This document shows positions 3 to 43,119 of a DNA stretch of 64,000 nt, piece by piece. Made by a program: the position numbers and the translations under genes. Where the stretch lies: positions 13,334-77,333 of the forward strand of contig JAUIDB010000010.1 of assembly GCA_030429235.1 (NCBI GenBank). The letters are read 5' to 3'. Under the pieces are notes generated by a model, which saw nothing but the letters and a program-made list of their open reading frames with translations, was not told where the DNA came from and searched no databases. This DNA comes from Thermoanaerobaculia bacterium. GTDB lineage: Bacteria > Acidobacteriota > Thermoanaerobaculia > Multivoradales > JAIOJS01. How positions within the stretch are numbered: the stretch's first letter is position 1; the number at the start of each line of letters is the position of its first letter.

Positions 3-920
3 TACTTGGGCCATCTGCTGGTAGGAGGGTCGGTCCGCGACGTCGAACTAGCCAATGGCCACGCCTACCTGGCAGGCAGCGGAGGCTTTACGGTATTGGA
101 TACTTCGTCACCGTGGATGCCAACTGTGTCTGCGAGGTTTGAAACCCAGGGCCGAGCCCTTGATGTCTCGTTGGATTCTGGATTGGCCTATGTTTCCGTC
201 GATGGTCCCGAGGGCCTGTTGATTTATGACTTGGGAGACCCAGGAGTCCCGGTGCTGCTCGGTTCACTTGCGTCGGCATCCGCAGCCGAAGAGGTTTCCG
301 TTAGGGGCGGCTATGCGTTCTTGGCATCACCCTTTCTTGATCTGAAGATCGTTGATATCAGCGTTCCGTCAGCGCCAATCGAAGTTGCTTCGGTAGTAGC
401 CGGGGCCTCCCAGACGACCGCCCTCAATGGCGACTACGCCTATAGCGCCGGTTCTCAACTGGCGGTCATCGATGTCTCCGTTCCGTCCAACCCGGTGGTT
501 CTGGCCTCTCAGGGGTTGCCCTTCTCAATAAGCGACTCTGCAGTTCGCAATGGGGTGCTCTACTTCTCCTCTTCCGGCCTGCGCGTTTTTGACACTGTCG
601 ATCCTCTTTCTCCGAACCAAATCGGATTGCTGTCTCTGGCGGGAGGTTCTTCCCACGATTTGGTCCTCGAGGCCGACCTCGTCTACCTGGCTGCCGGCCT
701 AGGTGGTGTTCGGGTAGTAGATGTTTCTGCGCCCACGGCACCTCGGCAAGTAGCGTATCGCGGTACCTCGTACGCTCGTGGAATTGCGGTTGGTGGTGAT
801 CGGGTTGCTGTAGCCAAGGACGGGCAAGGTCTGTCGATTCTGCAAGGCTGCGCAGGGCTGCTTTTTGCCGATGGTTTTGAGTCCGGGGATACCGTGGCCT
901 GGCCCCAGAGTAGTCCGTAG
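3..920 (+). CDS. LVIVD-repeat beta-propeller secreted protein, 5' end outside the window, with C-terminal FADGFESGD tail
   Basis: ORF is open to the window edge. It has six to seven ~45-aa repeats, each ending in a hydrophobic-x-D-x-S-x-P strand (LLIYDLGDPGVP, LKIVDISVPSAP, LAVIDVSVPSNP, VRVVDVSAPTAP), as in LVIVD repeats. It ends LLFADGFESGDTVAWPQSSP. Confidence 0.75.
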   Translation, partial: YLGHLLVGGSVRDVELANGHAYLAGSGGFTVLDTSSPWMPTVSARFETQGRALDVSLDSGLAYVSVDGPEGLLIYDLGDPGVPVLLGSLASASAAEEVSVRGGYAFLASPFLDLKIVDISVPSAPIEVASVVAGASQTTALNGDYAYSAGSQLAVIDVSVPSNPVVLASQGLPFSISDSAVRNGVLYFSSSGLRVFDTVDPLSPNQIGLLSLAGGSSHDLVLEADLVYLAAGLGGVRVVDVSAPTAPRQVAYRGTSYARGIAVGGDRVAVAKDGQGLSILQGCAGLLFADGFESGDTVAWPQSSP

Positions 921-2688: not shown

Positions 2689-3672
2689 CTACTTGCGAGG
2701 GGAGGCCTGCAGAACCGTGTTCAGTACCCCGTCGACGACGGTAGCCATCCGTTCATAGTCCAGCGTGTCGGCAGTGTCCGAGGACGTGTGGTAGTTGGGA
2801 TTCCTCATGAAGGCGGTGTCCGTCACCATCACAGCGTCGTATCCGTTGCGCCAGTAGTTGCGGTGGTCGGAAGCATCGATCCCCATTACCACGGGTCCGT
2901 TGAAGCTGAAGACTGGGATGGTGGAAGCGCCTCTGAACGACTTCTTGGCGTGGGCGGTGAGCCAGGCGTCTTCTGAGCGACCCACCACGGCGATGAAGTT
3001 CCCGTGGTCCGGGTAGAAGAGATCCAGGATCCAGCTGGGCCATGGCTGCTCGTCGACGAAGTAGCCGATCATCTCCAGGTTGATCATCCCCCAGATCTCC
3101 TGCTCCTCGGCGCCCAATAGGTCCGCGTGCACTCGGCTCCCCATGAGTGGGGAAGCGTAGAAGGGCGGCTCTTCCAGGGTGAAAGCGACCAGGGTTACCG
3201 GGAGCTTCGGCTGGGTGGCGCCGAGCAGCCGTGCTAGCTCCAGAAGGCCGGCCGTGCCGCTCGCATTGTCGTCAGCCCCTGGGAACTCGCCAAACAGAGT
3301 GAAGGCATCGTAGTGGGCTCCCACCACGACTCTGGGTCCCTCGTGCGGTCCAAACTCGGCGATCACGTTGTGGTAGTCGGATCCGTTCGCCGGGAAGGTC
3401 TGAAGGCGTACTCGGTCCGAGTACTGCTCGAACAGATCGGCGATGTAGTTGGCGGCTCGGGCGAGATTCTCCGGGTTGTCGCTCCCTCTCGGTACGACCT
3501 TCGTGGTCAGGAAGCGAGTGTGGGCCTCTAGAAGGTCAGCCCGCGCCCGATCGTGGGTCAGATCCTCGAAGTGGCCGAGGGAAGGCCGGCGGAGCACGAA
3601 GCAGGCGGTCGCGAGGAGTGTGAGCGCCAGGATTCCGGCAATCGTGAGGATTCGTAGTAGGCGGCGGAGCAC
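2689..3672 (-). CDS. M28 family metallo-aminopeptidase, membrane-anchored or secreted
   Basis: N-terminal hydrophobic anchor. Motifs VVGAHYDA and PGADDNASGTAGLLELARLL are typical of peptidase M28. Confidence 0.85.
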   Translation of the reverse strand: MLRRLLRILTIAGILALTLLATACFVLRRPSLGHFEDLTHDRARADLLEAHTRFLTTKVVPRGSDNPENLARAANYIADLFEQYSDRVRLQTFPANGSDYHNVIAEFGPHEGPRVVVGAHYDAFTLFGEFPGADDNASGTAGLLELARLLGATQPKLPVTLVAFTLEEPPFYASPLMGSRVHADLLGAEEQEIWGMINLEMIGYFVDEQPWPSWILDLFYPDHGNFIAVVGRSEDAWLTAHAKKSFRGASTIPVFSFNGPVVMGIDASDHRNYWRNGYDAVMVTDTAFMRNPNYHTSSDTADTLDYERMATVVDGVLNTVLQASPRK

Positions 3673-3934
3673 ACTGGTTCTACGCTGTGGCCGAGAGAAC
3701 CGTCCAACGTGTGAGTTTCTGGCCGGACCGCGGCGACCGCGGGAGTTCCTGTCTCACCAGACGGACCATTGTGCGGTTTGCGAGCCGGCTCGATAGCAAC
3801 TGATGAAGCTCCCCACTGACTGAGGGCAGTTCCTGCTCGTGCTTCAACTGCTTCTTTGGGTTCGAGGCGAGTGGAGTAGGCGGAAGTGCAGCCGGTGCTT
3901 GCTCTGCATTCGTCGAGACACTCGATGGTCCACG

Positions 3935-3950
3935 TGGCACGTCAGTTGCT
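3935..3950 (+). promoter_or_regulatory. Sigma-54 (-24/-12) promoter candidate upstream of the Kelch-like gene
   Basis: TGGCACGTCAGTTGCT matches the consensus TGGCACG-N4-TTGCW at every specified position. It lies in a 400-nt intergenic region, about 120 nt upstream of the ATG at 4073. Confidence 0.6.
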
Positions 3951-4072
3951 CCTAGGACGATCGAAGCGCGCTGATCAGAAGGATGGTCCTCCACCGCGCG
4001 GACGCATCGATCCGATGCTCACACCAAGTTGTGCGGTGACCAAGAACGAATTGCTAACGAAGGGGAACAAAT

Positions 4073-5392
4073 ATGTTCAATCTCAAGAATCTAGTCATCG
4101 CGACGATTTGCCTTCTGGCGATCCCGGCTGTGCTGCCGGCGCAGTGGGTAATCAACGGTTGGATGCCGGCGGGCACGGTACCGATCGACTACCCGCCCAG
4201 TCCGTTCTTTGCTGCAAGCTACCAGGGACACCTGTTCGTAATGGATGGAGTGACCGCTTGGGTTGGAGAGGTAGACCCCTCGACCGGCAACATCCTGAGC
4301 TGGGAGGAAACCACGGCACCCGATCGGACCCAGTACCGAGCAGCTTTGGTGCCCACGAGTGCGGCCGTCGTGGGTGACTACATCGTGATACCCCATGAAC
4401 CCGAGTCGCTGGTCGCTCGGTTCAACAGCGACGGATCGATCGACGGGGACTGGCTTCCAGCCCCCGGACTCGTCAATGCAAGAGCCACGACCGGTGTTGG
4501 AGCGACCGCCGTGTCAGGCTCCTTCCTCTACGTCGTGGGGGGACATGGGCCCGGCTCGGCCCTGGGACGTGTAGAGGGAACTCTCGTCAACCAGGACGGC
4601 ACCCTGGCTCCCTGGCAAGACCTTGGATCCCTACCGGCCCCCGTGATCCTCCACGACCCAAGGGCTGATGTGATCGATGGCTTCCTCTACGTGTTCGGAG
4701 GAGAAGGAACGTCGCCTTCGGGCTCCTTGACCCACTCTCGGAACGTTCACCGGGCCCAGATTCAGCCAGACGGTACGCTTGGATCCTGGGTCAAGGTCGG
4801 TGACATGCTGCAGGCTCGCCCGCATGCCGGCCACCTGCTTGCAAACGGATCCGTCCATGTGGTTGCCGGCGGTGTTCACTCCTACATGACAAGTTCGGTG
4901 GAGTCAGCGACTCTTGCCGAGTTTGGGGAGACCGGGAGTCATATCCAGAACGCTCCCTTGCCCTACTCTCCGGGCCTCAACGAACTGGCTACGGCCGTAG
5001 TGGGGTCTTGGGGTTACGTCGTTGGTGGGAACACCCGACCGTTCGGTGGTGGTTTGGTTGCGGATGTTCTCGTCGCTCAGCTCGCACCCCTTTGCTCGGC
5101 CGATGGCGGCCCGTTTCATTTCGTTCGTCGACGTGGGAAGCCCAGGACAGAGTCTGCATCCTGGGTCGGATGCGGGGGCTCAGGGACGCTGCGGATCCTC
5201 AACAGCGGCACTTCTTCCGCGGTTGTTGTGCTCAACGGGGGCGAAGTAGCAGGGCCACAAGACTTCAACCCCAACGTGCAGGTCCTCGAGATTCCGATTC
5301 TGGACCTACCGACCGAGAACACCTTGGAGGTGACCATGAGGGGAGCTCCGGGTTCGAGTCTGCAGATCTCGTTCATAGCAGCAGGCTCTTGA
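4073..5392 (+). CDS. Secreted Kelch-like beta-propeller repeat protein with C-terminal beta-sandwich region
   Basis: Signal peptide MFNLKNLVIATICLLAIPAVLPAQ. Recurrent blade signatures with a GG doublet: FLYVVGGHG, FLYVFGGEG, VHVVAGGV, GYVVGGNT. Composition is lower in GC than the neighbouring genes. Confidence 0.7.
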   Translation: MFNLKNLVIATICLLAIPAVLPAQWVINGWMPAGTVPIDYPPSPFFAASYQGHLFVMDGVTAWVGEVDPSTGNILSWEETTAPDRTQYRAALVPTSAAVVGDYIVIPHEPESLVARFNSDGSIDGDWLPAPGLVNARATTGVGATAVSGSFLYVVGGHGPGSALGRVEGTLVNQDGTLAPWQDLGSLPAPVILHDPRADVIDGFLYVFGGEGTSPSGSLTHSRNVHRAQIQPDGTLGSWVKVGDMLQARPHAGHLLANGSVHVVAGGVHSYMTSSVESATLAEFGETGSHIQNAPLPYSPGLNELATAVVGSWGYVVGGNTRPFGGGLVADVLVAQLAPLCSADGGPFHFVRRRGKPRTESASWVGCGGSGTLRILNSGTSSAVVVLNGGEVAGPQDFNPNVQVLEIPILDLPTENTLEVTMRGAPGSSLQISFIAAGS

Positions 5393-5420
5393 TTCCGGCC
5401 CCTTCGCTTCAGTTGGCGAG

Positions 5421-5459
5421 CAAGACCACAGTAGGCCAGGGCGTCCTACTGTGGTCTTG
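5421..5459. terminator. Perfect 15-bp stem hairpin between convergent genes (probable bidirectional terminator, no clear U-tract)
   Basis: CAAGACCACAGTAGG (5421-5435), 9-nt loop, CCTACTGTGGTCTTG (5445-5459). It sits 29 nt after the stop of 4073..5392 and lies between that gene and 5686..6804(-). Confidence 0.5.
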
Positions 5460-5685
5460 GGCCTGATGATCGAGACTCTCTATCCAGGACCAGAGCTCCT
5501 TGGCTCGCCCGAAGTCGTACTGGGGCACCGGCGTCGGAGCCGGGCGCGTTCTTTGGGCGACGTTTCGGTCGCGATGAGCTTCGGTTTTGGGAGTAAGAAC
5601 AGGCGACGATCGTGTCACCGGAAGTGGCTGCAGGTCATAGCATGGCCAAACTAGGACCGAGCTGGATCATCACTCCTTGGGTTCG

Positions 5686-6804
5686 CTAGCCCGTCCTTGG
5701 CGACCTACGCGATGGTGAGATCGCGGCTGAGCTTGCCCGGAAGAAGATCAACGCCGAGAGTAGCGGGCCACCGAGTATGAGCATGAATCCAGAGAACGCC
5801 CTCACAGCCACGTTCTGAATACTGAGGTAGTAGTCCACGAGATGACTCGAGTATTGCCAGGCGTATTGGACCGTGGCGATCGCGATGAGGGCTGAGATAG
5901 CCGGTGCGGCATACCGACGGAGCCACTCTTGGCGTTTGAAGAATGCCGAGATGGGAGCCACTAGAACGGAAAACACCACCAGCATTACGGTCAAGGCCAC
6001 AGAAGCCCGAATCCAGAGGTTCATAACGCCCTTCTGGGTCAACAGGTCTCTCATTCGCTGGCTTTTGGCATGGTCTCGTGCTAGCTTGCCATCCAGGTCT
6101 CGAATGTTGACGTCAGCTCCCATGGCGATTAGTACTTCCGCTACCTGTGTGTAGTCCTCTCTGACCGCGGCCATCAACGGTGTAGTGCCGTCCTGTGCAG
6201 TCGCATCGACTTCGAGGTGTCTTCCGCTGTCTCCGATCTCGGTGAGGATTTCATGGTGACCCCGGGCCGCTACAAACCACAGTGGCGCCGCACCTTCAGG
6301 CCCACCTTTCAGGTTCAGGTTCGCACCGCCGCTGACGAGTTCCCGGAAGACCTCCAGTCGGCCCCGTTTGGCAGCAATGACGAGGGGTGTCTCTCCAAGG
6401 CTGTTTCTCGTGTCGATGTCTGGCATCCTGTCTTGAGCTAGGAGGAGCCTCAGGGTCTGCGTATCTGCGTTTCTTGCGGCTACGTGTAGGACAGTGTCTC
6501 CTGGGGCCATTTCCACAGAGTCGCCTGCTCCCTCAGGGACACGAAGAAAGGCGTCGGCTCCGTTGGCAAGAAGAAGTCGTGCTAATCCGGTACGGCTTCG
6601 GGAGATCGCCCAGAGCAGGGCTGAGATGCCCTCTCCATCCAGTTGGTTCGCATCGCCGGTGTTGGCCAGAGCCGAGAAGAGTTCCTTGACGTTCCCGGAC
6701 TTGGCTGCGGAGACCAGTTTCCCCTCGTTCGCCGCCGCTTGGCTGCTTGCCACGGTAGTCGCAGCCAGCACAAGAGCCACTTTTCCAGCTATACCGAGAT
6801 TCAC
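5686..6804 (-). CDS. Ankyrin-repeat protein with N-terminal signal/anchor and C-terminal multi-pass membrane domain
   Basis: Several ANK units (GISALLWAISRSRTGLARLLLANGAD, DTVLHVAARNADTQTLRLLL, ETPLVIAAKRGRLEVFRELVSGGAN, TTPLMAAVREDYTQVAEVLIAMGADVN). Four hydrophobic helices at the C-terminus. The GTG start overlaps the upstream stop (GTGA). Confidence 0.8.
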   Translation of the reverse strand: MNLGIAGKVALVLAATTVASSQAAANEGKLVSAAKSGNVKELFSALANTGDANQLDGEGISALLWAISRSRTGLARLLLANGADAFLRVPEGAGDSVEMAPGDTVLHVAARNADTQTLRLLLAQDRMPDIDTRNSLGETPLVIAAKRGRLEVFRELVSGGANLNLKGGPEGAAPLWFVAARGHHEILTEIGDSGRHLEVDATAQDGTTPLMAAVREDYTQVAEVLIAMGADVNIRDLDGKLARDHAKSQRMRDLLTQKGVMNLWIRASVALTVMLVVFSVLVAPISAFFKRQEWLRRYAAPAISALIAIATVQYAWQYSSHLVDYYLSIQNVAVRAFSGFMLILGGPLLSALIFFRASSAAISPSRRSPRTG

Positions 6805-7619
6805 CGAGACTCACCCTTCCGAGACAGTTCGAGTTGAATTGATTGGAGTGACTCCCCAGTTCCTGCTAGGAAGCGAGATACCGCCTGCTTTTTTTCTGGC
6901 CGGAGATCTAGGGTTGCCGGACAGAGCCTCTTCTTCGTACAGCTGATACGGGATCGTTCCCACTCGTCTATGGATTGCGCCAACTCGAGCAGTCGAAGCG
7001 CTACGGTTTCTCGCTGTCGTTCGTAGCTATCGATTCTGTGAGACAGGGTGTTCTCGGTCCGTTCGGTTGTCTCCCGGACCGCAGTGAGTTCCTTTTTCGT
7101 CTCATAGAGCTGTTCGAGTGTTTCGTTGGCTTTGGCTTGCAGGTCCACAAGTTCGTCCTCGACGGTTTGTATGTGCGCCCCGACCCCAGCGAGTAGAAGC
7201 TCGAAACTCGTACGGATTTCCGAGCGCACTTCGTCGTCGTAGTTCTGAAGCTGCCCCTCCACTTGACGAAAGACCTTCTCTCGATGATCGTTAAAGGCGC
7301 TGGGAATTTGGTCTACGTACTGCATCACCTGCTCGTTGAGTTCGAGGTGTCTACGCACCAGATCGTCGTGTTCACTCCGAAGTACTGATAGCTCGACTTC
7401 GTGAATCCGGAGTTCCTTCCGGAGGTCGGCCGTCAACTCGTTCGCTCGCTGAAGCTGATCTGAACAGCCCTGGCCTTCGGACCTGCATCTCTTGAGATCC
7501 CTTTCGCAGCAGGCTGCGGTGCCACTGATAAGAAAGACGAGCAGTAGCCGAGTCGGCAACGAGCGGCTCCGGCGGTGGAGGCTCCTTTCAGATCGAACCA
7601 TCATGGATTCTTTGTCCAT
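6801..7619 (-). CDS. Coiled-coil protein, possible lipoprotein, translationally coupled to the ankyrin gene
   Basis: N-terminus LLLVFLISGTAACC (lipobox-like). The rest is heptad-rich and E/L/R/Q-rich. The 4-nt GTGA overlap with the start of 5686..6804 supports co-expression. Confidence 0.6.
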   Translation of the reverse strand: MDKESMMVRSERSLHRRSRSLPTRLLLVFLISGTAACCERDLKRCRSEGQGCSDQLQRANELTADLRKELRIHEVELSVLRSEHDDLVRRHLELNEQVMQYVDQIPSAFNDHREKVFRQVEGQLQNYDDEVRSEIRTSFELLLAGVGAHIQTVEDELVDLQAKANETLEQLYETKKELTAVRETTERTENTLSHRIDSYERQRETVALRLLELAQSIDEWERSRISCTKKRLCPATLDLRPEKKQAVSRFLAGTGESLQSIQLELSRKGESR

Positions 7620-7850
7620 CCGATCTCCTTCTTCCGAGGCCTTCTCGGGCGGCCTTCACAAAACAACTCGTGGGGCCATGGATCTGCAAGGCCCGGGCCA
7701 AGCCCTCCCGGAGGCCTGGGTATGTCTGGACGCGATTTCCGGCGCGACCCCGAGTGCAAGCAGGTGAAGAGACTGGCTGTGGACGTTGCTAAGCTAGTGT
7801 CTACCCGTGTCTCTCGGAAGATGCGCGCTCCTGACACAATAGGGCCAGCA

Positions 7851-10577
7851 ATGAACAGAGACGGGGATCAGGGTGTCCCATCGGTTCCGAGCCCGGCCCT
7901 AGCAGCCGGAGCCACCTTCCGCTCCCGCTACGAGATCGTCGAACGGCTCGGTCAGGGCGGCTACGCCGAGGTGTACCGGGCTCAGGATCTAGAGATCGAT
8001 CGCGAGGTCGCCTTGAAGATCCTGCGGCCGGATCGGACGAGTGACGCTTCGGTACGCCGGCTGAAGCGGGAGGCGGCGGTGGCCCGGGATGTGGAGAGTC
8101 CTCATCTGGTTCGGGTCTTCGAGGTGGATACGTCGACTCTGCCGGCGTTTCTCACCATGGAGGTGGTGGAGGGGGGCAGCCTGCTGGAGGAGATCGCGGC
8201 GGGCCCGGTGCCGATCGAGCGGGTGCTGGAGGTGGCGCGGCAGGTACTCCTCGGGTTGGAAGCGCTGCACGGAATGGGGATCCTGCACCGGGACATCAAG
8301 CCCAGCAACGTGATGATCACGTCGGACGGCCAGGTGAAGCTGGCCGACTTTGGGATGGTCCACCAACTCTCGCGAGAGTCGACGCGGCTGACCGAGTCTT
8401 CGGCCATCGTGGGGACGATCGACTACGTGGCTCCGGAGACGGTTCTCGGCGATCCGCCCGACGGTCGAGCCGATCTCTACGGGCTCGGGTTGTTGCTGTT
8501 CGAGATGCTCACGGGGAGCCTGCCCTTCGGTGACTCCCCTTCGGCTCTCGGCGCTGCGTTGGAGCGCCTGCACCGATCACCGCCTCGGGTGGTACCGCTC
8601 CGACCAGAGACCCCCCGTTGGCTAGAGAAGGTCGTCCTGAGGCTCCTCGAACGACGTCCGGAAGACCGTTTCGCGAGTGCCGAGGCCGTGCGCCGCGCCT
8701 TGCGCGAGCATCGTGTGCCGCGATCTCGTCGGGTGTGGCGACGGAACGCCTGGCTGGCGGCGGGGATCGTGCTGGCCAGTGTCGCGAGCGCCTGGGTGCT
8801 GGCGAGGATAGGGGGATCGATCCCGGTCCTCTCGCACATCACGGCGCAGGAACCGGAGCCGGGCCTCTTCGGGCTCTCGGCTGACGGTGAGGTGCTGTGG
8901 CATCGGCCCGACCTGAGGTCCGGTTGGTGGGTCACTGCCCAGTCGAGTTCGGGGGGCGGACCGATTCCCCTCGGGTTGCGGGCCGGGGCCGGGCCACAGG
9001 ATCTGGAGGTGCTGCACCAGTTGCTGGTTCTCGATCCCACCAGCGGGGAGACGGTGGACCGAGTGACGCTGCCTTCGGCGGGAGATGAGTTTCCCGGTTT
9101 TGCACCGCGGTTCCAGCCGGAACTCCACGCGGTCGACATCGATGGAGATGGCGGCGAGGAGGTGGTGGTCACCTACTTTCACACCTACTGGCCCTCGTAC
9201 ACCGTGGTCTATGAACCCAGATGGCGCCGGGCGCGGGTGGCGCTGTTGGCGGCGGGGCACCACCGCCCGGTCGGCGTGGCCGACGTGGATTCTGACGGCA
9301 ACAACGAACTGATCTTCCTGGGAGTTTCGAACCGCATGGGTTGGTACGCTGGGCTGGCCGCAGTTTCGATGGTGCCTCCGATCAACCGGCCGGGAGAGGC
9401 GACGCTGAGTACGGCGGCGGCCACGACGCCGGACGGCTACTTCCTCAGGCGATGGCGGGGCATGGTTTGGTACGCGCTCGCTCCGCCCGGGATCTGGTGC
9501 TCCGGGATCGGCACCTGTACCGAAGTGGACCCCGATGCTCGTGAGATTCGCCTGGAACCCCCCGGCGGCTCGCAAGTGCGCTACTCGTTCGACGGGTACC
9601 TAGTGGAAGACCGGGTCTCCGGCCTCGATTCGGCGGAGCGGAACCGCCGCCGGGGTCGCGCCTACAAGCACCTGGAGGAAGCGGGGCGGCTGCTCGATTC
9701 GCGGCTCGAAGATTGGGGCGAGGAGGAGGCCGAGCGAGCGGTGGAGTTGGCTCGTACGGTCCGCGACCGCTTCCTTACCGACTGGGCCCTGCGCACGCTG
9801 GGGAGGATCGTGATCGAGCGCGGACGAATCGAGGAAGGAGAGCAGATCTTCGAACAACTCTCGGTCGACTCTCCAGCTGCTACCAGCGCCGCCTTCGAGG
9901 CCGCCCACGCGCTGCAATTGGCTGGCCGCCCGGATCGCTCTCTCGATTGGTACCCGCGGGCCTTCGGCGCCGCTGGGGACTGGGGACCGGGCCGCAGTCG
10001 CGACCGGCTGGTTCGGGGGTTGTTGTTGGCCTACAGCGAGATCGGTGACTACGAAGGAGCACAGAAGGCCCTCGACCGGTTCAGCAATCCCGGGCAGATC
10101 ACGTCGCGAATCGACACGTATCTGAGGCCCTACGTCGCCTGGCGGATGGAGGATCGATCCGTAGCCCCCATGCCCTACCGCGCGGGGAACCCCGATCTGG
10201 AGGTCTATTGGAGCCTCGAGCAGGCGCTGGCTCACGGTACCGAACTCGAAGTCCTTTGGGAACGGGTGCAACTCGCCATGGACCAGAGTTCGGAGGAATT
10301 GCCTTTGCTGCAGAATCTGGCCGGTGAGATCCAATGGAAGATGGGTCGCCGTGCGGAGGCTTTGGTCTGGTTCGAGAGGGCTTTCGCGGGAGGTGAAGCG
10401 GAGCTCGAGCGGAGTATCTCGGTCCGTGCCCACTTCGATCTGATCGTCAGCCGACTGCTGCGGGGAGTCCGCGACGCAGGCCTCGAGACCAGAAGCAGAG
10501 AGATCGCGAGCGTGGCGGAAGCCTGGGATTCTCATCAGCGGCAGCTGCGTCATCTCATGTCTGTCAGAGGGCAGTAA
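7851..10577 (+). CDS. Transmembrane Hanks-type Ser/Thr protein kinase with FG-GAP-like extracytoplasmic region and TPR-like C-terminus
   Basis: GQGGYAEVY, VALK, HRDIKPSNVMI, DFG and APE motifs. One TM helix (AWLAAGIVLASVASAWVLA). VDIDGDGGEEVVV and ADVDSDGNNELIFLG are FG-GAP-like. The track ORF starts at 7575 and would overlap the divergent gene, so ATG 7851 (or 7821) is preferred. Confidence 0.85.
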   Translation: MNRDGDQGVPSVPSPALAAGATFRSRYEIVERLGQGGYAEVYRAQDLEIDREVALKILRPDRTSDASVRRLKREAAVARDVESPHLVRVFEVDTSTLPAFLTMEVVEGGSLLEEIAAGPVPIERVLEVARQVLLGLEALHGMGILHRDIKPSNVMITSDGQVKLADFGMVHQLSRESTRLTESSAIVGTIDYVAPETVLGDPPDGRADLYGLGLLLFEMLTGSLPFGDSPSALGAALERLHRSPPRVVPLRPETPRWLEKVVLRLLERRPEDRFASAEAVRRALREHRVPRSRRVWRRNAWLAAGIVLASVASAWVLARIGGSIPVLSHITAQEPEPGLFGLSADGEVLWHRPDLRSGWWVTAQSSSGGGPIPLGLRAGAGPQDLEVLHQLLVLDPTSGETVDRVTLPSAGDEFPGFAPRFQPELHAVDIDGDGGEEVVVTYFHTYWPSYTVVYEPRWRRARVALLAAGHHRPVGVADVDSDGNNELIFLGVSNRMGWYAGLAAVSMVPPINRPGEATLSTAAATTPDGYFLRRWRGMVWYALAPPGIWCSGIGTCTEVDPDAREIRLEPPGGSQVRYSFDGYLVEDRVSGLDSAERNRRRGRAYKHLEEAGRLLDSRLEDWGEEEAERAVELARTVRDRFLTDWALRTLGRIVIERGRIEEGEQIFEQLSVDSPAATSAAFEAAHALQLAGRPDRSLDWYPRAFGAAGDWGPGRSRDRLVRGLLLAYSEIGDYEGAQKALDRFSNPGQITSRIDTYLRPYVAWRMEDRSVAPMPYRAGNPDLEVYWSLEQALAHGTELEVLWERVQLAMDQSSEELPLLQNLAGEIQWKMGRRAEALVWFERAFAGGEAELERSISVRAHFDLIVSRLLRGVRDAGLETRSREIASVAEAWDSHQRQLRHLMSVRGQ

Positions 10578-10638: not shown

Positions 10639-12414
10639 ATGCTGCGTTTTGTCGCCCGGAACGAGGGCCAGGAGCGTCGATTTCCGATCGCGGCCGATGG
10701 CGTGTGGACCGTAGGCTCGGCGATCGAGTGCGAACTCTCTGTCCCCTTCGACGGGGTCTCGCGGCGGCATGCCAGCCTCGAGCGCCGGGGAAGCCGAGTC
10801 TGGCTCACGGATTGTGGTTCCAAGAACGGCCTCAGGGTGGAGGGGCGGGTCGAGGCGCAGATCGAACTGCTGCCAGGGATTCGGGTAGACCTCGGTGGCA
10901 CGGTGGTCGAGATCGAAGAGGCAGCGTCGTCGGATACACGATTCGCGGTCGAGCTGCGGCGTTCGTCGAGCGTGGCTTCTCGACTGCGCACCAGTACGGC
11001 GGGAGCGATGGCCGGCGACGGACGTTCTTCACCCGCTGCCGCGCTCGCCTTCGTTCGGCGGTTCGAGCGAGCGTCGCTCCAACCGGGCTCGGAACTCTGG
11101 TCGCGACTCGTCGCCGAGACTCTGGAGATCCTCGAGGCCGAAACCGTGGCGGTGCTGCAGCGGGTTCCCGGGGAGCCTCGCGAGGTGTTGGAACAGTGCT
11201 GGGGCAGGCACCGGGTGCCAGGAGCCGAGGTAGAGGATCCGTGGAGCGCGGCCCAGCTCTCGGCCGAACTGGAAGGGGAATCGGCCAGAATCGTGGCCAT
11301 CCTGGGCCAGGGGGCCAAGGTCGATCGCTGGAAGGAGGACTTCTTCTCCTACCTGGCGACCCGCTGGCAGGAGCAGCGTCACGACCCTCCCGCTCCTCGC
11401 GCCCAGCCGGCCCAGGTCGAGCCGGAACGAGGCCCCGTGGTTCTCGGGCGCTCCGCCGCCATGGTAGAGGTCGAAACGCTGGCTCGGGCCGCGGCCGAGA
11501 GTGGTCTCAACGTCGTGCTCCTCGGCGAGACGGGGACCGGCAAGGAGGTTCTCTCACGCTTCATCCATCGTCTGCGTGCCACCGGGAAGGGTGAGCTGGT
11601 AGCGATCAACTGCGCTGCGATTCCCTCCGAACTCCTCGAAGCCGAACTCTTTGGCGTTGCCAGCCGAGTGGCGACCGGCGTAGATCCCCGCGAGGGGCTC
11701 TTCGTGCGCGCCCACGGGGGAACCCTTCTCCTGGACGAGATTGGCGAGATGCCCTACACGCTGCAGGCGAAACTGCTGCGAGCGCTCCAGGAGCGGGAGG
11801 TCATGCCGGTGGGAGGGCGACGGCCGATGCCGGTCGATCTTCGAGTCATCTCGACGACGCACCGTCCCCTGGCTCGGCTCGTGGCCGAGAAGAAGTTTCG
11901 CGCTGATCTCTACTACCGACTCCGCGGACTCGAGATCTGGCTTCCACCCCTCCGAGAGCGACTCGAAGACATTCCGGAGTTCGCCACTCTCTTTGCCCAG
12001 AGAGCAGCCCGTGCTTCGGGAAAGCGGGTCCGCGGGATCACCGAGCGTGCGCTGCGGCTTCTTACCTGCCACCGCTGGCCCGGCAACGTGCGGGAACTCG
12101 AGACCGACATGGAACGCGCTGTGGCGTTGTGTGCCGACGGAGGCAGCATCGACTCGCGGCTCTTCTCCCACCTGGATCCAGTCGCGGGACGACCTAGTTC
12201 CGTCTCGGTGCTCGAAGCCCCGACCTCGAGGGCCGTGGCGCCCAAGGCTGGCCACTCTACGGTCACACTGCGGGAGGAACTCGACGCTACCGAGCGCGAG
12301 CGAATCCGACGAGAGCTGGCGCTTTCGGGCGGCAACAAGTCGGAGGCCGCTCGAAGGCTCGGGGTGACCTGGAATGGGCTGGTGATGAAGATGAAGCGAT
12401 TGGGGTTACGGTAG
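10639..12414 (+). CDS. FHA-domain sigma-54-type enhancer-binding protein (AAA+) with Fis-type HTH and degenerate GAFTGA loop
   Basis: N-terminal FHA signature (GSAIECELSVPFDGVSRRHASLERRGSRVWLTDCGSKNGLRVEG). Walker A GETGTGKE and Walker B LLLDEIGEM. C-terminal HTH LSGGNKSEAARRLGVTWNGLVMKMKRLGL. The position normally occupied by GAFTGA reads RVATGV (nt 11665-11682). Confidence 0.85.
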   Translation: MLRFVARNEGQERRFPIAADGVWTVGSAIECELSVPFDGVSRRHASLERRGSRVWLTDCGSKNGLRVEGRVEAQIELLPGIRVDLGGTVVEIEEAASSDTRFAVELRRSSSVASRLRTSTAGAMAGDGRSSPAAALAFVRRFERASLQPGSELWSRLVAETLEILEAETVAVLQRVPGEPREVLEQCWGRHRVPGAEVEDPWSAAQLSAELEGESARIVAILGQGAKVDRWKEDFFSYLATRWQEQRHDPPAPRAQPAQVEPERGPVVLGRSAAMVEVETLARAAAESGLNVVLLGETGTGKEVLSRFIHRLRATGKGELVAINCAAIPSELLEAELFGVASRVATGVDPREGLFVRAHGGTLLLDEIGEMPYTLQAKLLRALQEREVMPVGGRRPMPVDLRVISTTHRPLARLVAEKKFRADLYYRLRGLEIWLPPLRERLEDIPEFATLFAQRAARASGKRVRGITERALRLLTCHRWPGNVRELETDMERAVALCADGGSIDSRLFSHLDPVAGRPSSVSVLEAPTSRAVAPKAGHSTVTLREELDATERERIRRELALSGGNKSEAARRLGVTWNGLVMKMKRLGLR

Positions 12415-27792: not shown

Positions 27793-27884
27793 TCCTGCTG
27801 GTTGCTAACGGAACGGAGTGTAGTCAGCGAGATCAGGCAACCTAGTCCACGATACCCGAGCCAACCGCGAACAAACGAGGAAGC

Positions 27885-34625: not shown

Positions 34626-35303
34626 TCAGCTCGGGGTCGGCGCGGAAGCCGGGGGCCACAGGTTGCGTCCCAGCTTGGTCGACAGCCACTCCAGGCCGCC
34701 GCGCCAGCCCGTGAAGCGAATCCCGGTCTCGACGCGGGCGAGCAGTACGCAGCCTTCGTCGGCTTCGGTGGCGGGTCGGTGGCTCGAACCCGCCTCGTAC
34801 CGCACGAAGTCGCCCGCCTCGACCAGGAGCTGGTCGTCGCGATAGCCGCCGGTGAGGACCAGGGTCTCCTCGGAGCCGAGGTGCTGGTGGGTCGGGAAAC
34901 GCCGGTCGGCACCGGCTCGAGCCGCCACCAGGAAGTACTCGTCCTCGCGGGCCAGAATCGCTACCTCCACCCCCCGAGTCAAAGGCGATCGCCAGCGCGG
35001 CGAACCCTGCCAGGGGAGGCTACCCGTCCGCCACTCGCGAGGTAGAGGCAGCCCGCCATCGGTGGTGCCCGGCGAGTCGTCGAGGCTCCTTGCCAGGCGC
35101 TCCCAGATCGTCGGTGGCGGCGCGGCTTCCCGAACTCCTTCGAGCCAATGCTGTCCGGGGGCTTGCAGCGCGTCCAGTTCCGAGCGGCAGGCGGCGCAGA
35201 GATCGAGATGGCAGTCGATCAGAAAGCGGCGCGGCAGGTCGACCTGGCCGGCGGAGTAGTCGATCAGTAGATCCGCAGAGGGGTGGTGGCGGGGGATCCT
35301 CAT
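34626..35303 (-). CDS. chrR: ChrR-type anti-sigma factor (N-terminal zinc-binding domain plus C-terminal cupin)
   Basis: HHPSADLLIDYSAGQVDLPRRFLIDCHLDLCAACRSEL matches the ChrR N-terminal HxxxCxxC pattern. Cupin-like C-terminus. It starts 1 nt after the ECF sigma stop. Confidence 0.8.
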   Translation of the reverse strand: MRIPRHHPSADLLIDYSAGQVDLPRRFLIDCHLDLCAACRSELDALQAPGQHWLEGVREAAPPPTIWERLARSLDDSPGTTDGGLPLPREWRTGSLPWQGSPRWRSPLTRGVEVAILAREDEYFLVAARAGADRRFPTHQHLGSEETLVLTGGYRDDQLLVEAGDFVRYEAGSSHRPATEADEGCVLLARVETGIRFTGWRGGLEWLSTKLGRNLWPPASAPTPS

Positions 35304-35304
35304 C

Positions 35305-35844
35305 CTATCGATTCTCCAGGTGTTGTCTCAGTCGGTTCAGGCCGCTCCGAACCCTCGACTTGAGGGTGCCGAGAGGGAGCTCGAGACGGCGCGCCGTCTC
35401 CTCGTAGGTCAGCCCGCCGAAGTAGGCGAGCTCGAGGGCGCTGCGCTGCCCGTCGTCCAGCTGACCGAGAGCCTGTACCACAGCGAGACGGGTCTCGAGA
35501 GAGAGCCGCAAGGGTGGTTGGATCGGCTCCGATTCCAAGGCGCTGGTGGGACGACGTCCCTGGTAGCGCAGGCGATCGAACCACTTGTTGCGGGCGATGG
35601 TGAAGAGCCAGCCGGCGGCGACTCCGCGCCGGGCATCGAAGGTCGTGGCTCGGTCCCAGACGGCGAGAAAGACGTCCTGGAGCAGGTCGTCGACGTCAGT
35701 CTTCGCTGCACCGAGGCTGCTCAGGTAGGCGGCGATGCGACCGCCGTACCGCTCGTAGAAGGTCGCAAAGGCGTGGCGGTCGCCGCTGGCGACGCGTCGC
35801 AGCAGCTCCTGGTCATCGATCGTCGGTGTGGGCAAGGGAATCAC
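35305..35844 (-). CDS. ECF-type RNA polymerase sigma-70 family factor
   Basis: Region 2 (DVDDLLQDVFLAVWDRATTFD...WLFTIARNKWFDRLR) and region 4 (ALELAYFGGLTYEETARRLELPLGTLKSRVRSGL). GTG start with a GGAGA RBS. Confidence 0.85.
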   Translation of the reverse strand: MIPLPTPTIDDQELLRRVASGDRHAFATFYERYGGRIAAYLSSLGAAKTDVDDLLQDVFLAVWDRATTFDARRGVAAGWLFTIARNKWFDRLRYQGRRPTSALESEPIQPPLRLSLETRLAVVQALGQLDDGQRSALELAYFGGLTYEETARRLELPLGTLKSRVRSGLNRLRQHLENR

Positions 35845-37493: not shown

Positions 37494-38888
37494 CTAGGTC
37501 TGGTCGTCCTGCTCCGGTCGGGCAATGCCGAGACTGTTCATCTTCTGATGGAGATGGGTCCTCTGCAGTTCGAGCAGGCGGGCGGCAGCGGCCACGTTCC
37601 AGCCCGTGCTGGCGAGGGCGCGTCGGATGTGGCGGGCCTCGGCGATCTCCTTGAACCGGCGAAAGGGGAGTACGGGGCCGTCGAAGGGGTCGTCGCCATC
37701 GGCTCCGCTCTCAGAGGTCCGGGGATCGAGCATCTCGACCGGTAGCTGCTCGGGAGTGACGGGGTCGGTGCCAAAGACGACGAGCCGCTCGGTCAGGTTT
37801 TCGAGTTCGCGAACGTTGCCGGGCCACGGGTACTGTTCGAGGATCGGATAGACGGCCTCGGTGGCGGCGAGTTGGCGCACGCGGTGGCGAGTCCAGGCCC
37901 GACGGAGAAAGTGGTCGAAGAGGAGCCGGATGTCTCCGGAGCGCTGGCGCAGCGGAGGGACTTCGATCGGCAGGTGGGCGAGGCGGAAGTACAGGTCCTG
38001 TCGGAAGGACTGGTTCCGGATGCCCTCCTCCAGTTGGGCGTGGGTGGCGGCGAGGACCCGCACGTCGACCTCTCGGTCGCGGGTCTCGCCGATGCGGCGG
38101 ACGCGGCCGTCCTCGAGAACCCTGAGGAGGCGGGACTGTAACCGGTAGTCCATGTCGCCGATCTCGTCGAGGAAGAGGGTCCCGCCGTGAGCCTCTTCGA
38201 AAAGGCCCCGTTTGTCGCTGGCGGCGCCGGTGAACGCTCCCTTGACGTGGCCGAAGAGCTCGTCCTCGACCAGATCCTGCGGGATCGCGGCGCAGTTGAG
38301 TTTGATGAAGGGTTGGCGCGCCCGTGGGCTGCCGCGATGGATGGCGTCGGCCACGAGCTCCTTGCCGGTACCACTCTCGCCGAGGATGAGGACCCGACCC
38401 TCGGTCGGGGCCGCTTTGGCGATCGCCTCGCGGAGGGCCAGCATGGCCGGCGACTCGCCGATCAGTTCCGACTGGCCGCGCAGCTCGGACTCGAGGTCCT
38501 GGACCCGCGTTCTCAGGCTGGAGTGTTCGAGGGTGTTCTCGATCGATCGGCGGAGGCGCTCGGTACTGAACGGCTTCTCGATGAAGTCGTGGACGCCGAG
38601 CTTGAGGGCCTCGACCGTCTCGGCGATCGAGGCCTCCCCGGAAACGATGATCGTCGGCGGGAGACGATCCGACTCGGCCAGGCGTCGGATCAACTCGACG
38701 CCGCTCAGGCCGGGCAAACGCACGTCGACCAGCATCAGGCCCGGAGGGTTGTCGGGTCGGGAGTCGAGCCATTCCAGGGCCGCCTCGGCGGTGTCGGTGG
38801 CCGCGGCCCGGTGTCCCGCCTCTTTGAGCTGGAAGAGCAGGTTGGCGCGAATCCTCGGATCGTCCTCGACGACGAGAACCTCGATCAT
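37494..38888 (-). CDS. NtrC-family sigma-54-dependent response regulator
   Basis: Receiver domain (VVEDD...MLVDVRLPG). AAA+ domain with GESGTGKE, an intact GAFTGA (ELFGHVKGAFTGA) and LFLDEIGDM. C-terminal Fis-type HTH (NVAAAARLLELQRTHLHQKMNSLGI). Confidence 0.9.
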   Translation of the reverse strand: MIEVLVVEDDPRIRANLLFQLKEAGHRAAATDTAEAALEWLDSRPDNPPGLMLVDVRLPGLSGVELIRRLAESDRLPPTIIVSGEASIAETVEALKLGVHDFIEKPFSTERLRRSIENTLEHSSLRTRVQDLESELRGQSELIGESPAMLALREAIAKAAPTEGRVLILGESGTGKELVADAIHRGSPRARQPFIKLNCAAIPQDLVEDELFGHVKGAFTGAASDKRGLFEEAHGGTLFLDEIGDMDYRLQSRLLRVLEDGRVRRIGETRDREVDVRVLAATHAQLEEGIRNQSFRQDLYFRLAHLPIEVPPLRQRSGDIRLLFDHFLRRAWTRHRVRQLAATEAVYPILEQYPWPGNVRELENLTERLVVFGTDPVTPEQLPVEMLDPRTSESGADGDDPFDGPVLPFRRFKEIAEARHIRRALASTGWNVAAAARLLELQRTHLHQKMNSLGIARPEQDDQT

Positions 38889-40114
38889 TCGGTACTCCGT
38901 GCGGACGGCGCCTCGGGTTCGGGCGGCGGCAGGGTGAGCTGGAAGGTGGCGCCGCCGGTCGAGCTCGAAACCAGTCGAAGGTCGCCACCGTGGTCGAGGA
39001 GGATCTTCTTGGAGATCGCCAGACCGAGTCCCATCCCCTCGCCGACGTTCCGGGTCGTCGTGTAGGGCTGGAAGAGGCTGTCACTCACCTGGGCGGCGAT
39101 GCCGGGGCCGTCATCGGCCACGTCGACCTGCACCTCGTGGTCGAGGCAGCGAACCTCCAGGGTCACCGACACCGAGCCCGGGGCCGCGGCGGCGGAACTG
39201 TTATCCCAGAGGTTCACCAGCACTTGACGCATCATGTCGCGGTCGATGTTGACGAAAGCGGGTCCGCTGGTGACGCACTGGAGGGAGAGGTTGTCCCAGG
39301 CATCCTGGTAGATCTCGGCGAGTTCGGCCAGGAGACTCGACAGGTCGACGCGCTGTAGCTTCGGCCGCGGCAGCCGGGCGAAGGAGCTGAAGCGGTGGGT
39401 GAACTCGGTGAGTCGATCCAGTTCCTGCCGGGCCCCGTCGAGGAACTCGTCGATCTCGGCGGCAGTGGCGCGAGGGTTCTTCTGCAGTGTGTTGCCCAGG
39501 CGAGCCAATTCGAGGCGCAAACCGGTGATGGGAGAGCGCATCTCGTGGGCGTGGCGTCGCGCTGCTTCCTGCCAGGCGGACAGGTTTTCGAGCATGGCCA
39601 GTCGTTGGCGGTCACCGGCCATGCGGCGCGAGGTCTCCTCGATCATGGCTGCGATCCTACCGAGGACGCCCCGCCCGCTCTCGCCCGTGTCGAGGACCGG
39701 TCGGCCTTCGGCGAGCCGACCGAGCGACTCTCGGAGCCGCTCGAGGCGGCGCTCGCGGTTCGTCTGGCGCCAAACCAGGCCGCCGGCTACCACCAGGAGG
39801 CAGAGGGCGAAGAGGGTGAGCCCGAGTGCCTCGGATCGCGCCACCAGGTCGGCTCGACTGCGCTCCAAGACCTGGAGTCGGTGCAGCGTCGATTCGATCC
39901 GATCGAATCGTTCGCGGTACTCGGCCGCTCGCTCCGGATCCAGCTCCGCCAGCCGCTTCTGGTCGTCGAGCGAGCCGGACAGTCGATCGAGTACCTCGGG
40001 GTGGGCGCCGAAGGCGAAGGAAGCCTGCGAGAGCTGTCGCTGTAGGACCTGAAAGAGGAGGGCCGCGAGCAGGATGGCTCCGAGCGTGGCGACGATCGGG
40101 GTGCGAAGCTTCAT
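38885..40114 (-). CDS. Two-TM sensor histidine kinase (HisKA + HATPase_c)
   Basis: Start re-set to ATG 40114 (MKLRTPIVATLGAILLAALLF). H-box HEMRSPITGL, N-box VLVNLWDNS, G-boxes DDGPGI and GMGLGLAISK. ATGA overlaps at both ends link it to its neighbours. Confidence 0.85.
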   Translation of the reverse strand: MKLRTPIVATLGAILLAALLFQVLQRQLSQASFAFGAHPEVLDRLSGSLDDQKRLAELDPERAAEYRERFDRIESTLHRLQVLERSRADLVARSEALGLTLFALCLLVVAGGLVWRQTNRERRLERLRESLGRLAEGRPVLDTGESGRGVLGRIAAMIEETSRRMAGDRQRLAMLENLSAWQEAARRHAHEMRSPITGLRLELARLGNTLQKNPRATAAEIDEFLDGARQELDRLTEFTHRFSSFARLPRPKLQRVDLSSLLAELAEIYQDAWDNLSLQCVTSGPAFVNIDRDMMRQVLVNLWDNSSAAAAPGSVSVTLEVRCLDHEVQVDVADDGPGIAAQVSDSLFQPYTTTRNVGEGMGLGLAISKKILLDHGGDLRLVSSSTGGATFQLTLPPPEPEAPSARSTE

Positions 40115-40800
40115 GGGCGCGGTGCCTTTTCGAGGCGCAGTGTCCATTCCAGATGCACCATGGGTCGACGGCGGATCGAGGTGCTGAGGAGTCCGTCGAA
40201 GACGCGGTCGAGAGAGCTCTCGCTGCGCTCGAGACGATCCTTGGACTCCGATTCGGCCGTACGACTGGAACGTACCGACTCGGCAAACCAACGCTGGGTC
40301 TCGCGCTGTTCGGCCGCCGAGAAGGGAACCACCTGGAGGCGCACCCGGAGGGCGGGAGGCGGGTCGTGGGCAAGAGCAGCCGCGCACAGTGGGACCTCGA
40401 GGTCGGACCACCAGCCCCGGAGGTCGGCGGGGTCGGCCAGGGTTCGGCGGGTGGTGCTGTCCGGAGTTCGGAAGGTGGTGACCTGAAACTGCTCCTCCCA
40501 GAGCTCGTACCGAATCTGGATCGTGGTCCGGGCCAGGGAGGCCTTGCGGTTCAGGGCCAACTCGAACCTGAAGTGCGTGGTCAGACCGGTCTGGAGGTGT
40601 CGCTCGATCTCGGGGTCATCCAGGATTTCGGGCAGCTGCGAGAGGAGCACACACTCCTCATTGGACCGAGAGAGCCGCGGCGGGTCGGCGGCCAAGGAGG
40701 AGCCCAAACAGAGGATCAAGCAGAGACCCCAGAATCCCCGAGTCGCGGGGCGACGAGGCAGGACCGACGACGGGGGCACCCGGTAGAGCAAAGGTCGCAC
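40111..40800 (-). CDS. Periplasmic protein co-transcribed with the kinase (possibly DUF4390-like)
   Basis: Signal peptide FWGLCLILCLGSSLA. GTG start 3 nt after the upstream stop, and its stop overlaps the kinase ATG. The DUF4390 assignment rests on my recollection of that family's position upstream of NtrY-like kinases and is unverified. Confidence 0.6.
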   Translation of the reverse strand: MRPLLYRVPPSSVLPRRPATRGFWGLCLILCLGSSLAADPPRLSRSNEECVLLSQLPEILDDPEIERHLQTGLTTHFRFELALNRKASLARTTIQIRYELWEEQFQVTTFRTPDSTTRRTLADPADLRGWWSDLEVPLCAAALAHDPPPALRVRLQVVPFSAAEQRETQRWFAESVRSSRTAESESKDRLERSESSLDRVFDGLLSTSIRRRPMVHLEWTLRLEKAPRP

Positions 40801-40803
40801 CGG

Positions 40804-42336: not shown

Positions 42337-42412
42337 GGAGTCCGGACAGAGCCTCTCACAGGTTGCGCGGTGGCGCCAGGACGGCCCGCTCTCGCCACAG
42401 GGTCCATCCCGC

Positions 42413-43060
42413 CTAGAAGCGGTACCCGAGTCCGAGACTCAGGGAGTCGAAGTCGATGTCGACGGTTCCGTAGTCGACCAGCAGGTCGAGGCGGGGCGTC
42501 AGGTCGACGCGAGCGCCGGCACCGAGGAGTAGCTCGCTTCCAGTCAGCCGACCGAGGTACCCGAAGGTCGGTTGCACCGCCGAGATACGCTCTTCGTAAT
42601 AGCCCAGACCAACCCGTCCGAAGAGCGTAGTGCGGCCGAAATGGGTCTGCGGCACGAAGGCAAAGGTGAACAGTTCGAGGTCGGCCTCGACTTTGGCCAG
42701 CAGTTCGATGCAGAGAACCAGGGGGCCGGGAAAGCAGGCGGAACCCCAGCCCTCGAGATCATCGGCCCTTTGGTAGCCAACCTCGATGGCGAGGTTGCGG
42801 TGCAGTTCGAACCCGAAGACGACGGCTGGGGAGACCGCCTCGTTGTCGAAGTCCCAAGCGTGTAGGCCTTCGTAGGTGCGGTCGAAGGCCGCCAGTCCGC
42901 CCTTGAAGTCGACGTAGAAACGTTCCTCGGCCGCGCTTGGCGCCGCCAGGGCGAAGAGCACGCAGAGCCAGGCGAGGCCGGGAAGGAGCCTTCGAGACGT
43001 CGCAGGGGACCGGCGGGTCGTGGGGGCTGGGAGGTGGTTGCGGAGGAGGGAATGGTGCAT
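42413..43060 (-). CDS. Small outer-membrane beta-barrel protein (OmpA-like/OmpW-like porin family)
   Basis: Start re-set to ATG 43060 with an AGGAGA RBS. Signal peptide LAWLCVLFALAAPSAA. Alternating hydrophobic strands. C-terminal OMP signature LSLGLGYRF. Confidence 0.7.
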   Translation of the reverse strand: MHHSLLRNHLPAPTTRRSPATSRRLLPGLAWLCVLFALAAPSAAEERFYVDFKGGLAAFDRTYEGLHAWDFDNEAVSPAVVFGFELHRNLAIEVGYQRADDLEGWGSACFPGPLVLCIELLAKVEADLELFTFAFVPQTHFGRTTLFGRVGLGYYEERISAVQPTFGYLGRLTGSELLLGAGARVDLTPRLDLLVDYGTVDIDFDSLSLGLGYRF

Positions 43061-43103: not shown

Positions 43104-43119
43104 AGCAATGACCTTGCCA
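43104..43119 (-). promoter_or_regulatory. Sigma-54 promoter candidate (minus strand) for 42413..43060 and possibly the downstream operon
   Basis: The minus strand reads TGGCAAGGTCATTGCT, one mismatch to TGGCAC-N5-TTGCW with correct GG/GC spacing. It lies ~45 nt upstream of ATG 43060. Confidence 0.5.

Follow-up and report, generated by a model that had tools for sequence, protein, structure and literature searches.

Contig JAUIDB010000010.1 of a Thermoanaerobaculia bacterium (Acidobacteriota; assembly GCA_030429235.1) carries, in front of a gene for a Kelch-type protein, a sequence that reads as a textbook sigma-54 promoter, and this raises two questions: is this element, here called P1, a functional promoter of the sigma factor RpoN (sigma-54), and which activator would open it? 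We analysed positions 13,334 to 77,333 of the contig, a stretch of 64,000 nucleotides (nt) hereafter called the window, in which all coordinates are numbered from the first letter. A preliminary description of this DNA had placed P1 upstream of a secreted Kelch-like protein, had pointed to a nearby palindrome as the activator site and had considered such control unusual. Our analysis makes it likely that P1 is a functional RpoN promoter driving the gene at 4073..5392, whereas the palindrome finds no such support.

The -24/-12 element P1 and its probable target gene

The features on which this reading is built are the following.

3935..3950, plus strand: sigma-54 -24/-12 element P1, TGGCACG-TCAG-TTGCT (direct reading, consensus scan, spacer control)
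3960..3962, plus strand: predicted transcription start (sigma-54 geometry, with the C of the GC at 3949 taken as -12)
3962..4072, plus strand: predicted 5' leader of ~112 nt (from the predicted start)
4073..5392, plus strand: gene for a 439-amino-acid protein, predicted to be exported and to form a six-bladed Kelch-type beta-propeller (translation, AlphaFold2 (AF2) model, Foldseek)
2689..3672, minus strand: divergent neighbour, gene for a membrane-anchored M28 peptidase (gene list, Pfam, gene caller)

P1 (TGGCACGTCAGTTGCT) is composed of TGGCAC (3935-3940), a G at 3941, the spacer TCAG (3942-3945) and TTGCT (3946-3950). As previously described, it agrees with the consensus TGGCACG-N4-TTGCW at every specified base (12/12), and its GG (3936-3937) and GC (3948-3949) dinucleotides are separated by exactly 10 nt (GG-N10-GC). 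It is the sole exact match on both strands of the window, where the window's own composition predicts 0.016 (zero-order) or 0.008 (first-order) such matches; consensus matches with two mismatches occur at chance level (8 seen, 6.5 expected). P1 sits in a divergent intergenic region, a non-coding gap of 400 nt (3673-4072) bordered by the M28 peptidase gene and ATG 4073, and a gene caller run independently on this contig sets the same borders. From the end of the -12 element to the ATG there are 123 nt, and P1 has the same orientation as the gene, so that both the gap and the distance of about 120 nt given earlier are accurate. According to Francke et al. (PMC3162934), well-oriented sigma-54 sites within -50..300 of a translation start are 'highly likely' to be genuine, and P1 is upstream, co-oriented and inside this interval. 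A minus-strand open reading frame (ORF) at 3680..3994, called on one truncated contig, was judged to be spurious (no Pfam hit, and a non-coding-like GC content at third codon positions, GC3, of 0.61).

We take P1 as probably genuine because of its exact match, the low number of such matches expected and its intergenic, co-oriented placement. A scan of 3400-5800 with an E. coli-type sigma-70 consensus, which may not fit this phylum, detected no promoter, and this too counts for P1 as a sigma-54 promoter. If so, the sigma-54 holoenzyme would bind the GG (-24) and GC (-12) of P1 as a closed complex, and an AAA+ enhancer-binding protein, bound within the ~260 nt upstream, would use ATP to open it. 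Transcription would then start near 3961 and yield a monocistronic mRNA with a leader of ~112 nt, from which the presumably exported propeller protein is translated. An RNA element in the leader (3962-4072) is unlikely, because no Rfam match was detected there and its fold is no stabler than those of shuffled sequences (z 0.31).

ATG 4073 is the earliest possible start codon in its frame and is preceded, at 7-8 nt, by an AAGGGG Shine-Dalgarno sequence. The N-terminus of the protein (MFNLKNLVIATICLLAIPAVLPAQ) resembles, by inspection, a Sec signal peptide, from which export is predicted. No Pfam or NCBIfam model was hit at normal thresholds (none at 1e-3), and matches to the Kelch clan of Pfam are all sub-threshold (E 0.047-6.5). 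The AF2 model (pLDDT, the predicted local distance difference test, of 76 for the whole chain, rising to 80-97 across most of residues 30-340) nevertheless displays a six-bladed propeller spanning approximately residues 25-340, followed by a poorly modelled, low-confidence beta domain of ~100 residues. When this model was compared to the PDB with Foldseek, the best 50 matches were Kelch domains or Kelch-derived designs (E ~1e-13 to 1e-11, probability 1.0; template modelling score, normalised by target length, 0.72-0.78), with the Kelch domains of KLHL proteins and Keap1 among the neighbours. A search of 5.8 billion clusters retrieved only twelve homologues, of which the distant ones bear Kelch Pfam domains and share with the protein the repeat LYVxGG...DGTLxxW (LYVxGG...DGTLGxW in the alignment). 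The label of secreted Kelch-like protein is therefore a fair one by predicted fold and signal-peptide-like N-terminus, even though no Pfam model passes. Other contigs bearing the gene are identical in sequence (same genome), and contig scans using either the Kelch protein or the kinase described below did not find any close relative. At NCBI the contig measures 157 kb, and the corresponding Logan runs are ERR3428545 and SRR24442553; one run with the contig is a metagenome from biofloc aquaculture (PMC10582022).

Further -24/-12-like elements and upstream motifs

When all GG-N10-GC sites of the window were ranked by their agreement with the consensus, the best three were P1 (12/12) and two further elements with 11/12, here called P2 and P3.

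7700..7685, minus strand: P2, TGGCCCGGGCCTTGCA, 11/12, 66 nt before ATG 7619 (consensus scan)
5686..7619, minus strand: two-gene unit behind P2, converging on the Kelch gene (gene list, Pfam)
43119..43104, minus strand: P3, TGGCAAGGTCATTGCT, 11/12, 44 nt before ATG 43060 (consensus scan)
37494..43060, minus strand: putative operon behind P3 (gene list, Pfam)
3781..3792, neither strand: perfect 12-bp palindrome CGAGCCGGCTCG (direct reading; no support as an enhancer)
3842..3853, plus strand: weak candidate shared motif CTTCAACTGCTT, with its only other copy in the window, CTTCACCTGCTT, upstream of P2 at 7769..7758 on the minus strand

All three elements are non-coding and point in the right direction, with start codons 123, 66 and 44 nt away, respectively. 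By our own gene list, the position-strands eligible for such a placement (non-coding, co-oriented, 20-200 nt from a start) make up 3.1% of the window, and three out of three would fall there by chance with a probability of ~3e-5. As a control, ten wrong spacers (0-3 and 5-10 nt) were scanned in the same manner; these gave zero 12/12 matches and two 11/12 matches, both within genes, whereas the one 12/12 and two 11/12 matches obtained with the correct spacer are all upstream of genes. From their placement and this control, the organism appears to use canonical -24/-12 promoters. P2 is less secure than P1 or P3, because it embeds a GC-rich palindrome (GGCCCGGGCC) that recurs at 13664-13679 inside a PadR gene.

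The first gene behind P2 (6801..7619, minus strand) specifies a coiled-coil protein whose signal is lipoprotein-like; the second (5686..6804, minus strand) specifies an ankyrin-repeat protein that has a signal peptide and, at its C-terminus, membrane helices. Every product behind P1 and P2 appears to be exported or associated with the envelope. A general theme described for sigma-54 regulons is that they govern the envelope and exported components (PMC3162934); this fit counts for P1 as a promoter and makes the Kelch target new but not surprising, contrary to the earlier view that sigma-54 control of a secreted Kelch-type propeller is unusual. The Kelch, ankyrin and coiled-coil genes (4073-7619) share a GC3 of 0.61-0.68, against 0.76-0.87 in their neighbours, and may have been acquired more recently, as an islet encoding repeat proteins of eukaryote-like type. 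A low GC3 (0.58) is also seen in the LVIVD gene (6..920).

The run behind P3 comprises, in order, genes for an outer-membrane protein (OMP) beta-barrel (42413..43060), an Omp85-like protein (40804..42336), a histidine kinase (38885..40411) and an NtrC-type regulator (37494..38888), and looks like a typical autoregulated two-component operon. The ORF list extends the OMP beta-barrel gene to TTG 43120; ATG 43060, with an AGGAG ribosome-binding site in front and a signal peptide after it, is probably the true start. Two adjacent inverted repeats, CCACCG-t-CGGTGG and GTCTGG-tttc-CCAGAC, are found 120-137 nt upstream of P3. Elsewhere in the window, a 10/12 sigma-54-like match (TGGGACAGCCATTGCA, 26573-26588) lies within a stretch of ~2.7 kb (25497-28219) that contains only short or medium ORFs with weak coding signal and no confident gene.

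If P1 depends on an enhancer-binding protein, its upstream region might be expected to hold a binding site, and the palindrome CGAGCCGGCTCG had been put forward as such. Its reported position, ~145 nt upstream of the -24 element, is correct: 143 nt separate its end from the T of TGGCAC, and the predicted start is ~174 nt away. Enhancers can act over distances such as this. The palindrome is a perfect inverted repeat, and paired DNA-binding domains are described as binding upstream activating sequences (UAS; PMC7175178). Perfect 12-bp palindromes are common in the window, however: there are 25 of them, about one per 2.5 kb, which gives a ~10% chance of meeting one in any 260-nt stretch. With one mismatch allowed, the pattern of CGAGCCGGCTCG occurs at chance level, its sole near-copy being inside a sulfatase gene at 57183, and the check that had been proposed, a search for the same palindrome upstream of other predicted sigma-54 promoters, did not find it at P2 or P3. 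Moreover, CGAGCCGGCTCG is a single unspaced site, whereas the inverted repeats of P3 and of a related locus described below (L097) have separated half-sites. It is thus very doubtful that the palindrome is the UAS of P1.

A second motif, CTTCANCTGCTT, is limited to two copies in the window, which have the same orientation and precede the -24 T of P1 by 93 nt and that of P2 by 69 nt. This pattern was derived post hoc, and by our estimate ~0.3 such matches are expected between two 260-nt regions; we regard it as a lead only. Two further repeats near P1 were noticed. The -12 region of P1 (TCAGTTGCT, 3942-3950) has an exact reverse complement (AGCAACTGA, 3795-3803) 3 nt after the palindrome; this 9-nt repeat was set aside, as it forms no minus-strand -24/-12 site and is at chance level (~0.5 expected, by our estimate). 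CAACTG/CAGTTG is present three times within 150 nt, again at chance level by our estimate.

Candidate activators and the RVATGV regulator family

The preliminary description counted two sigma-54-type activators in the window and considered neither to be adjacent to P1. Both genes are present, and they are listed here with the kinase gene that accompanies one of them.

7722..10577, plus strand: Ser/Thr protein kinase with a TPR-containing C-terminal region (Pfam, gene caller)
10639..12414, plus strand: FHA - AAA+ (sigma-54 interaction) - helix-turn-helix (HTH_8) regulator (Pfam, HMMER alignments)
37494..38888, minus strand: NtrC-type response regulator with receiver domain, PF00158 and HTH_8 (Pfam)

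Only the NtrC-type regulator possesses the canonical sigma-54 contact loop (KGAFTGA). The presence of this activator, itself encoded behind a -24/-12-like site, suggests that the genome encodes sigma-54 and counts in favour of P1. The FHA regulator retains the AAA+ domain (PF00158, E 5.8e-54; Walker A GETGTGKE) and the DNA-binding domain (PF02954, HTH_8, E 9.8e-8), with ZraR and NifA as its best solved relatives, and no NCBIfam equivalog reaches its cut-off. Opposite the GAFTGA of ZraR and NifA, however, the HMMER alignment places RVATGV, in which the Phe is replaced by Ala. The count of two activators thus holds for the genes and their positions, but for the contact loop it holds for one of them only. 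Similarly, the statement that neither is adjacent understates the proximity of the FHA regulator, the nearest candidate activator: the kinase and regulator genes follow each other directly beyond P2, which lies beside the kinase gene, and the pair starts two genes (~2.3 kb) beyond the Kelch gene.

The start of the kinase is ambiguous (ATG 7722 of the gene caller, 22 nt from P2; ATG 7821; or ATG 7851, with AGGG before it), and GTG 7575 of the ORF list, which overlaps the divergent gene, is unlikely. The window also contains two genes for extracytoplasmic function (ECF) sigma factors: one (35305..35844, minus strand) adjoins a ChrR-cupin anti-sigma-like gene (34626..35303, minus strand), and the other (54862..55449, plus strand) overlaps by 4 nt the next gene (55446..56246), whose product has no Pfam hit and is possibly an anti-sigma factor.

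By published criteria, a loop such as RVATGV would disqualify a protein as a sigma-54 activator: changes at the Phe or Thr of GAFTGA mostly abolish activation (PMC3162934; PMC7175178), and the loop-defective homologues TyrR, DhaR, HupR and VpsR work with sigma-70 (PMC3162934). The variant is not a product of decay, as judged from its conservation: an R[VI]ATGV-type loop is common to 118 of the 120 best homologues of the FHA regulator, none of which has GAFTGA, and R-V-A-T-G-V-D-x-R-x-G is invariant in a 24-sequence alignment of the family. The sources of these homologues are named Thermoanaerobaculia and Vicinamibacteria, and the family, with more than 100 clusters, is apparently centred on Acidobacteriota. 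No mention of the RVATGV variant was found in the literature searched, which says little about the wider literature. A metagenome scan with the family alignment was dominated by the generic Walker A motif, and all 80 loci returned encode canonical GAFTGA-type activators.

In five related loci (L009, L010, L011, L012 and L097) a kinase of ~900 amino acids is encoded directly upstream of the regulator; in L094 the kinase gene in this position is split, and in L093, L095 and L096 a kinase is encoded nearby. In L009-L012 the element TGGAAY-N5-ATTGCA, which has GG-N10-GC spacing, is invariant and stands 43-45 nt ahead of the next gene, while its flanks and spacer vary; the gene that follows encodes a secreted Flg_new_2 protein. 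In L097, TGGCAGCGGCCTTGCT precedes the next gene by 61 nt and itself follows an inverted repeat, GGCGCCAAG-CGCT-CTTGGCGCC, whose GCCAAG..CTTGGC motif is also found in L009 and L010. In L094, TGGCATCTTCCTTGCC lies ~30 nt before the next gene, and in L093 nothing comparable was seen. These sites agree with the consensus at only 9-10 of 12 positions, and 9/12 matches are common noise in such GC-rich loci (6-14 per locus); they consequently weigh by position and conservation, not by score. The motif GCCAAG..CTTGGC was not found in the window, and the recognition helix of the window regulator's HTH has W where its relatives have a near-invariant R, so the site of the window regulator cannot be deduced from these relatives. 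The genes downstream of the regulator in the relatives show no similarity to the Kelch protein. As a separate observation, the Kelch protein's closest true homologue, P0002, which shares 44% identity and has a PKD domain (L003 5-3850, JGI 3300036859), is encoded 45 nt behind a gene for a Flg_new_2/fn3 protein, of the same domain family as the genes after the kinase/regulator pair in L009, L011 and L012; its contig stops short of any regulator gene.

Could P1 be a chance match, with the gene read from an unrecognised promoter of another class? A genome of 5-8 Mb would hold, by extrapolation, ~0.6-2 exact matches by chance; the sigma-70 scan, being tuned to E. coli, could have overlooked a promoter; and no conservation of the site supports it, the homologues of the gene showing no such element. 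Only ~3% of chance matches would land in an eligible upstream position, however, which leaves ~0.02-0.06 per genome, and the two next-best matches are also correctly placed, while wrong spacers give none in such places. We therefore consider a chance match improbable and retain P1 as a likely sigma-54 promoter. Several points nonetheless weigh against this reading. As P1 was picked as the best match of the window, the relevant expectation is that for the whole window (~0.01) and not a per-site one. The proportion of eligible positions depends on gene limits that we drew ourselves (from ORFs, Pfam hits and GC3), and P3 is eligible only if ATG 43060 is the start instead of the upstream TTG 43120. 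The search for orthologues of the Kelch protein found only the same genome and homologues of at most 44% identity; the two at 42-44% occur in other contexts, with no -24/-12 site in their available upstream DNA. No upstream motif common to P1, P2 and P3 above chance was found with k-mers or inverted repeats, no IHF consensus is present in the window, and there is no rpoN among the window genes.

If P1 is real, its activator may be encoded elsewhere than beside it, either by the NtrC-type gene 37494..38888 or, more likely, by a gene outside the window; we see this as quite possible, at slightly less than an even chance. Members of the Acidobacteriota possess numerous activators of this type, which may well be encoded at a distance from their targets. 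The canonical GAFTGA loop of the NtrC-type regulator and the Thermoanaerobaculia or Vicinamibacteria names of the closest relatives by regulator homology are in keeping with this, as are small coincidences between the upstream regions of P1 and P3 (ACCAGACGG/CCGTCTGGT and CCATTGTGCGG/CCATGGTGCGG), but the latter are at chance level (~0.5 exact 9-mers and ~1 11-mer with one mismatch expected). The NtrC-type regulator itself, moreover, appears to be tied to its own P3 operon, the inverted repeats of which are missing at P1. Alternatively, the kinase 7722..10577 could signal through the FHA domain of 10639..12414, which would activate both P1 and P2 in spite of its RVATGV loop. Such a local module would fit the position of the three low-GC3 genes together beside the kinase/regulator pair, the nearest activator-like gene being that of the regulator, with P2 directly next to the kinase and CTTCANCTGCTT upstream of P1 and P2 only, and it would agree with the conserved pairing of the two genes in the relatives, with the -24/-12-like elements before the next gene in L009-L012, L097 and L094 and with the inverted repeat of L097, whose GCCAAG..CTTGGC motif recurs in L009 and L010. 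Against it stand the Phe-to-Ala replacement, of a kind that mostly abolishes activation, the background of 9/12 matches in the relatives' loci, the W in the HTH of the window regulator and the absence of GCCAAG..CTTGGC from the window, the unrelated genes that follow the regulator in the relatives and the post hoc, near-chance nature of the shared 12-mer; we therefore hold this module to be unlikely. Both estimates are rough and conditional on P1 being real, and they leave a remainder that we did not allocate. A still broader proposal, that the kinase-coupled FHA-AAA+ proteins with RVATGV(DPR) loops are genuine sigma-54 activators without the Phe of GAFTGA and that the window copy switches on P1 and P2, is slightly more doubtful. 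If it were true, exported proteins with eukaryote-like repeats (Kelch, ankyrin and coiled-coil), encoded by a small group of low-GC3 genes, would be under Ser/Thr-kinase control.

P1 and the FHA regulator in the light of known systems

Taken as a promoter, P1 adds one well-supported predicted sigma-54 target in a poorly studied lineage and suggests that the textbook -24/-12 consensus is in use there. It is an ordinary instance of a well-known element, which helps annotation and changes no concept. The collateral lead is more useful: proteins with an RVATGV loop are as a rule discarded as 'not real' sigma-54 activators, but -24/-12-like elements directly follow their genes in several relatives, which bears on whether activators in nature can dispense with the Phe of GAFTGA.

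Compared with canonical RpoN promoters such as glnAp2, nifH and pspA (compilation used in PMC3162934), P1 is the same at all 12 specified bases and in spacing, and it is likewise intergenic and co-oriented, 123 nt from the start codon. It differs in having no recognisable enhancer or IHF site and in belonging to an uncultured host, and its predicted target encodes an exported Kelch-type propeller instead of being a nitrogen, flagellar or stress gene. With bacterial Kelch-repeat propellers (the Kelch_1-6 clan), the product of 4073..5392 shares the predicted six-bladed fold and the repeat signature, but it belongs to a very small family that falls below every Pfam Kelch threshold.

FHA-domain enhancer-binding proteins coupled to Ser/Thr kinases were reportedly described in Myxococcus xanthus by Jelsbak, Givskov and Kaiser in 2005. 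The window regulator shares their FHA - AAA+ - HTH architecture, and its gene comes straight after one for a Ser/Thr kinase, suggesting that it may be under phospho-threonine-dependent control, but it differs from the M. xanthus regulators in its contact loop (RVATGV, not GAFTGA). In this respect it resembles TyrR, DhaR, HupR and VpsR (PMC3162934), in that it keeps the AAA+ fold and HTH_8 without the Phe of the contact loop. Francke et al. (PMC3162934) describe 'substitutions/deletions' in the loops of those proteins, with a clear deletion in VpsR and YplP; the loop of the FHA regulator, by contrast, differs in length by no more than one residue, still contains the Thr-Gly and is strictly conserved in its variant form. 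A last difference is that, in several relatives, what precedes the gene adjoining that of the regulator is a -24/-12-like element and not an obvious promoter of the sigma-70 type.

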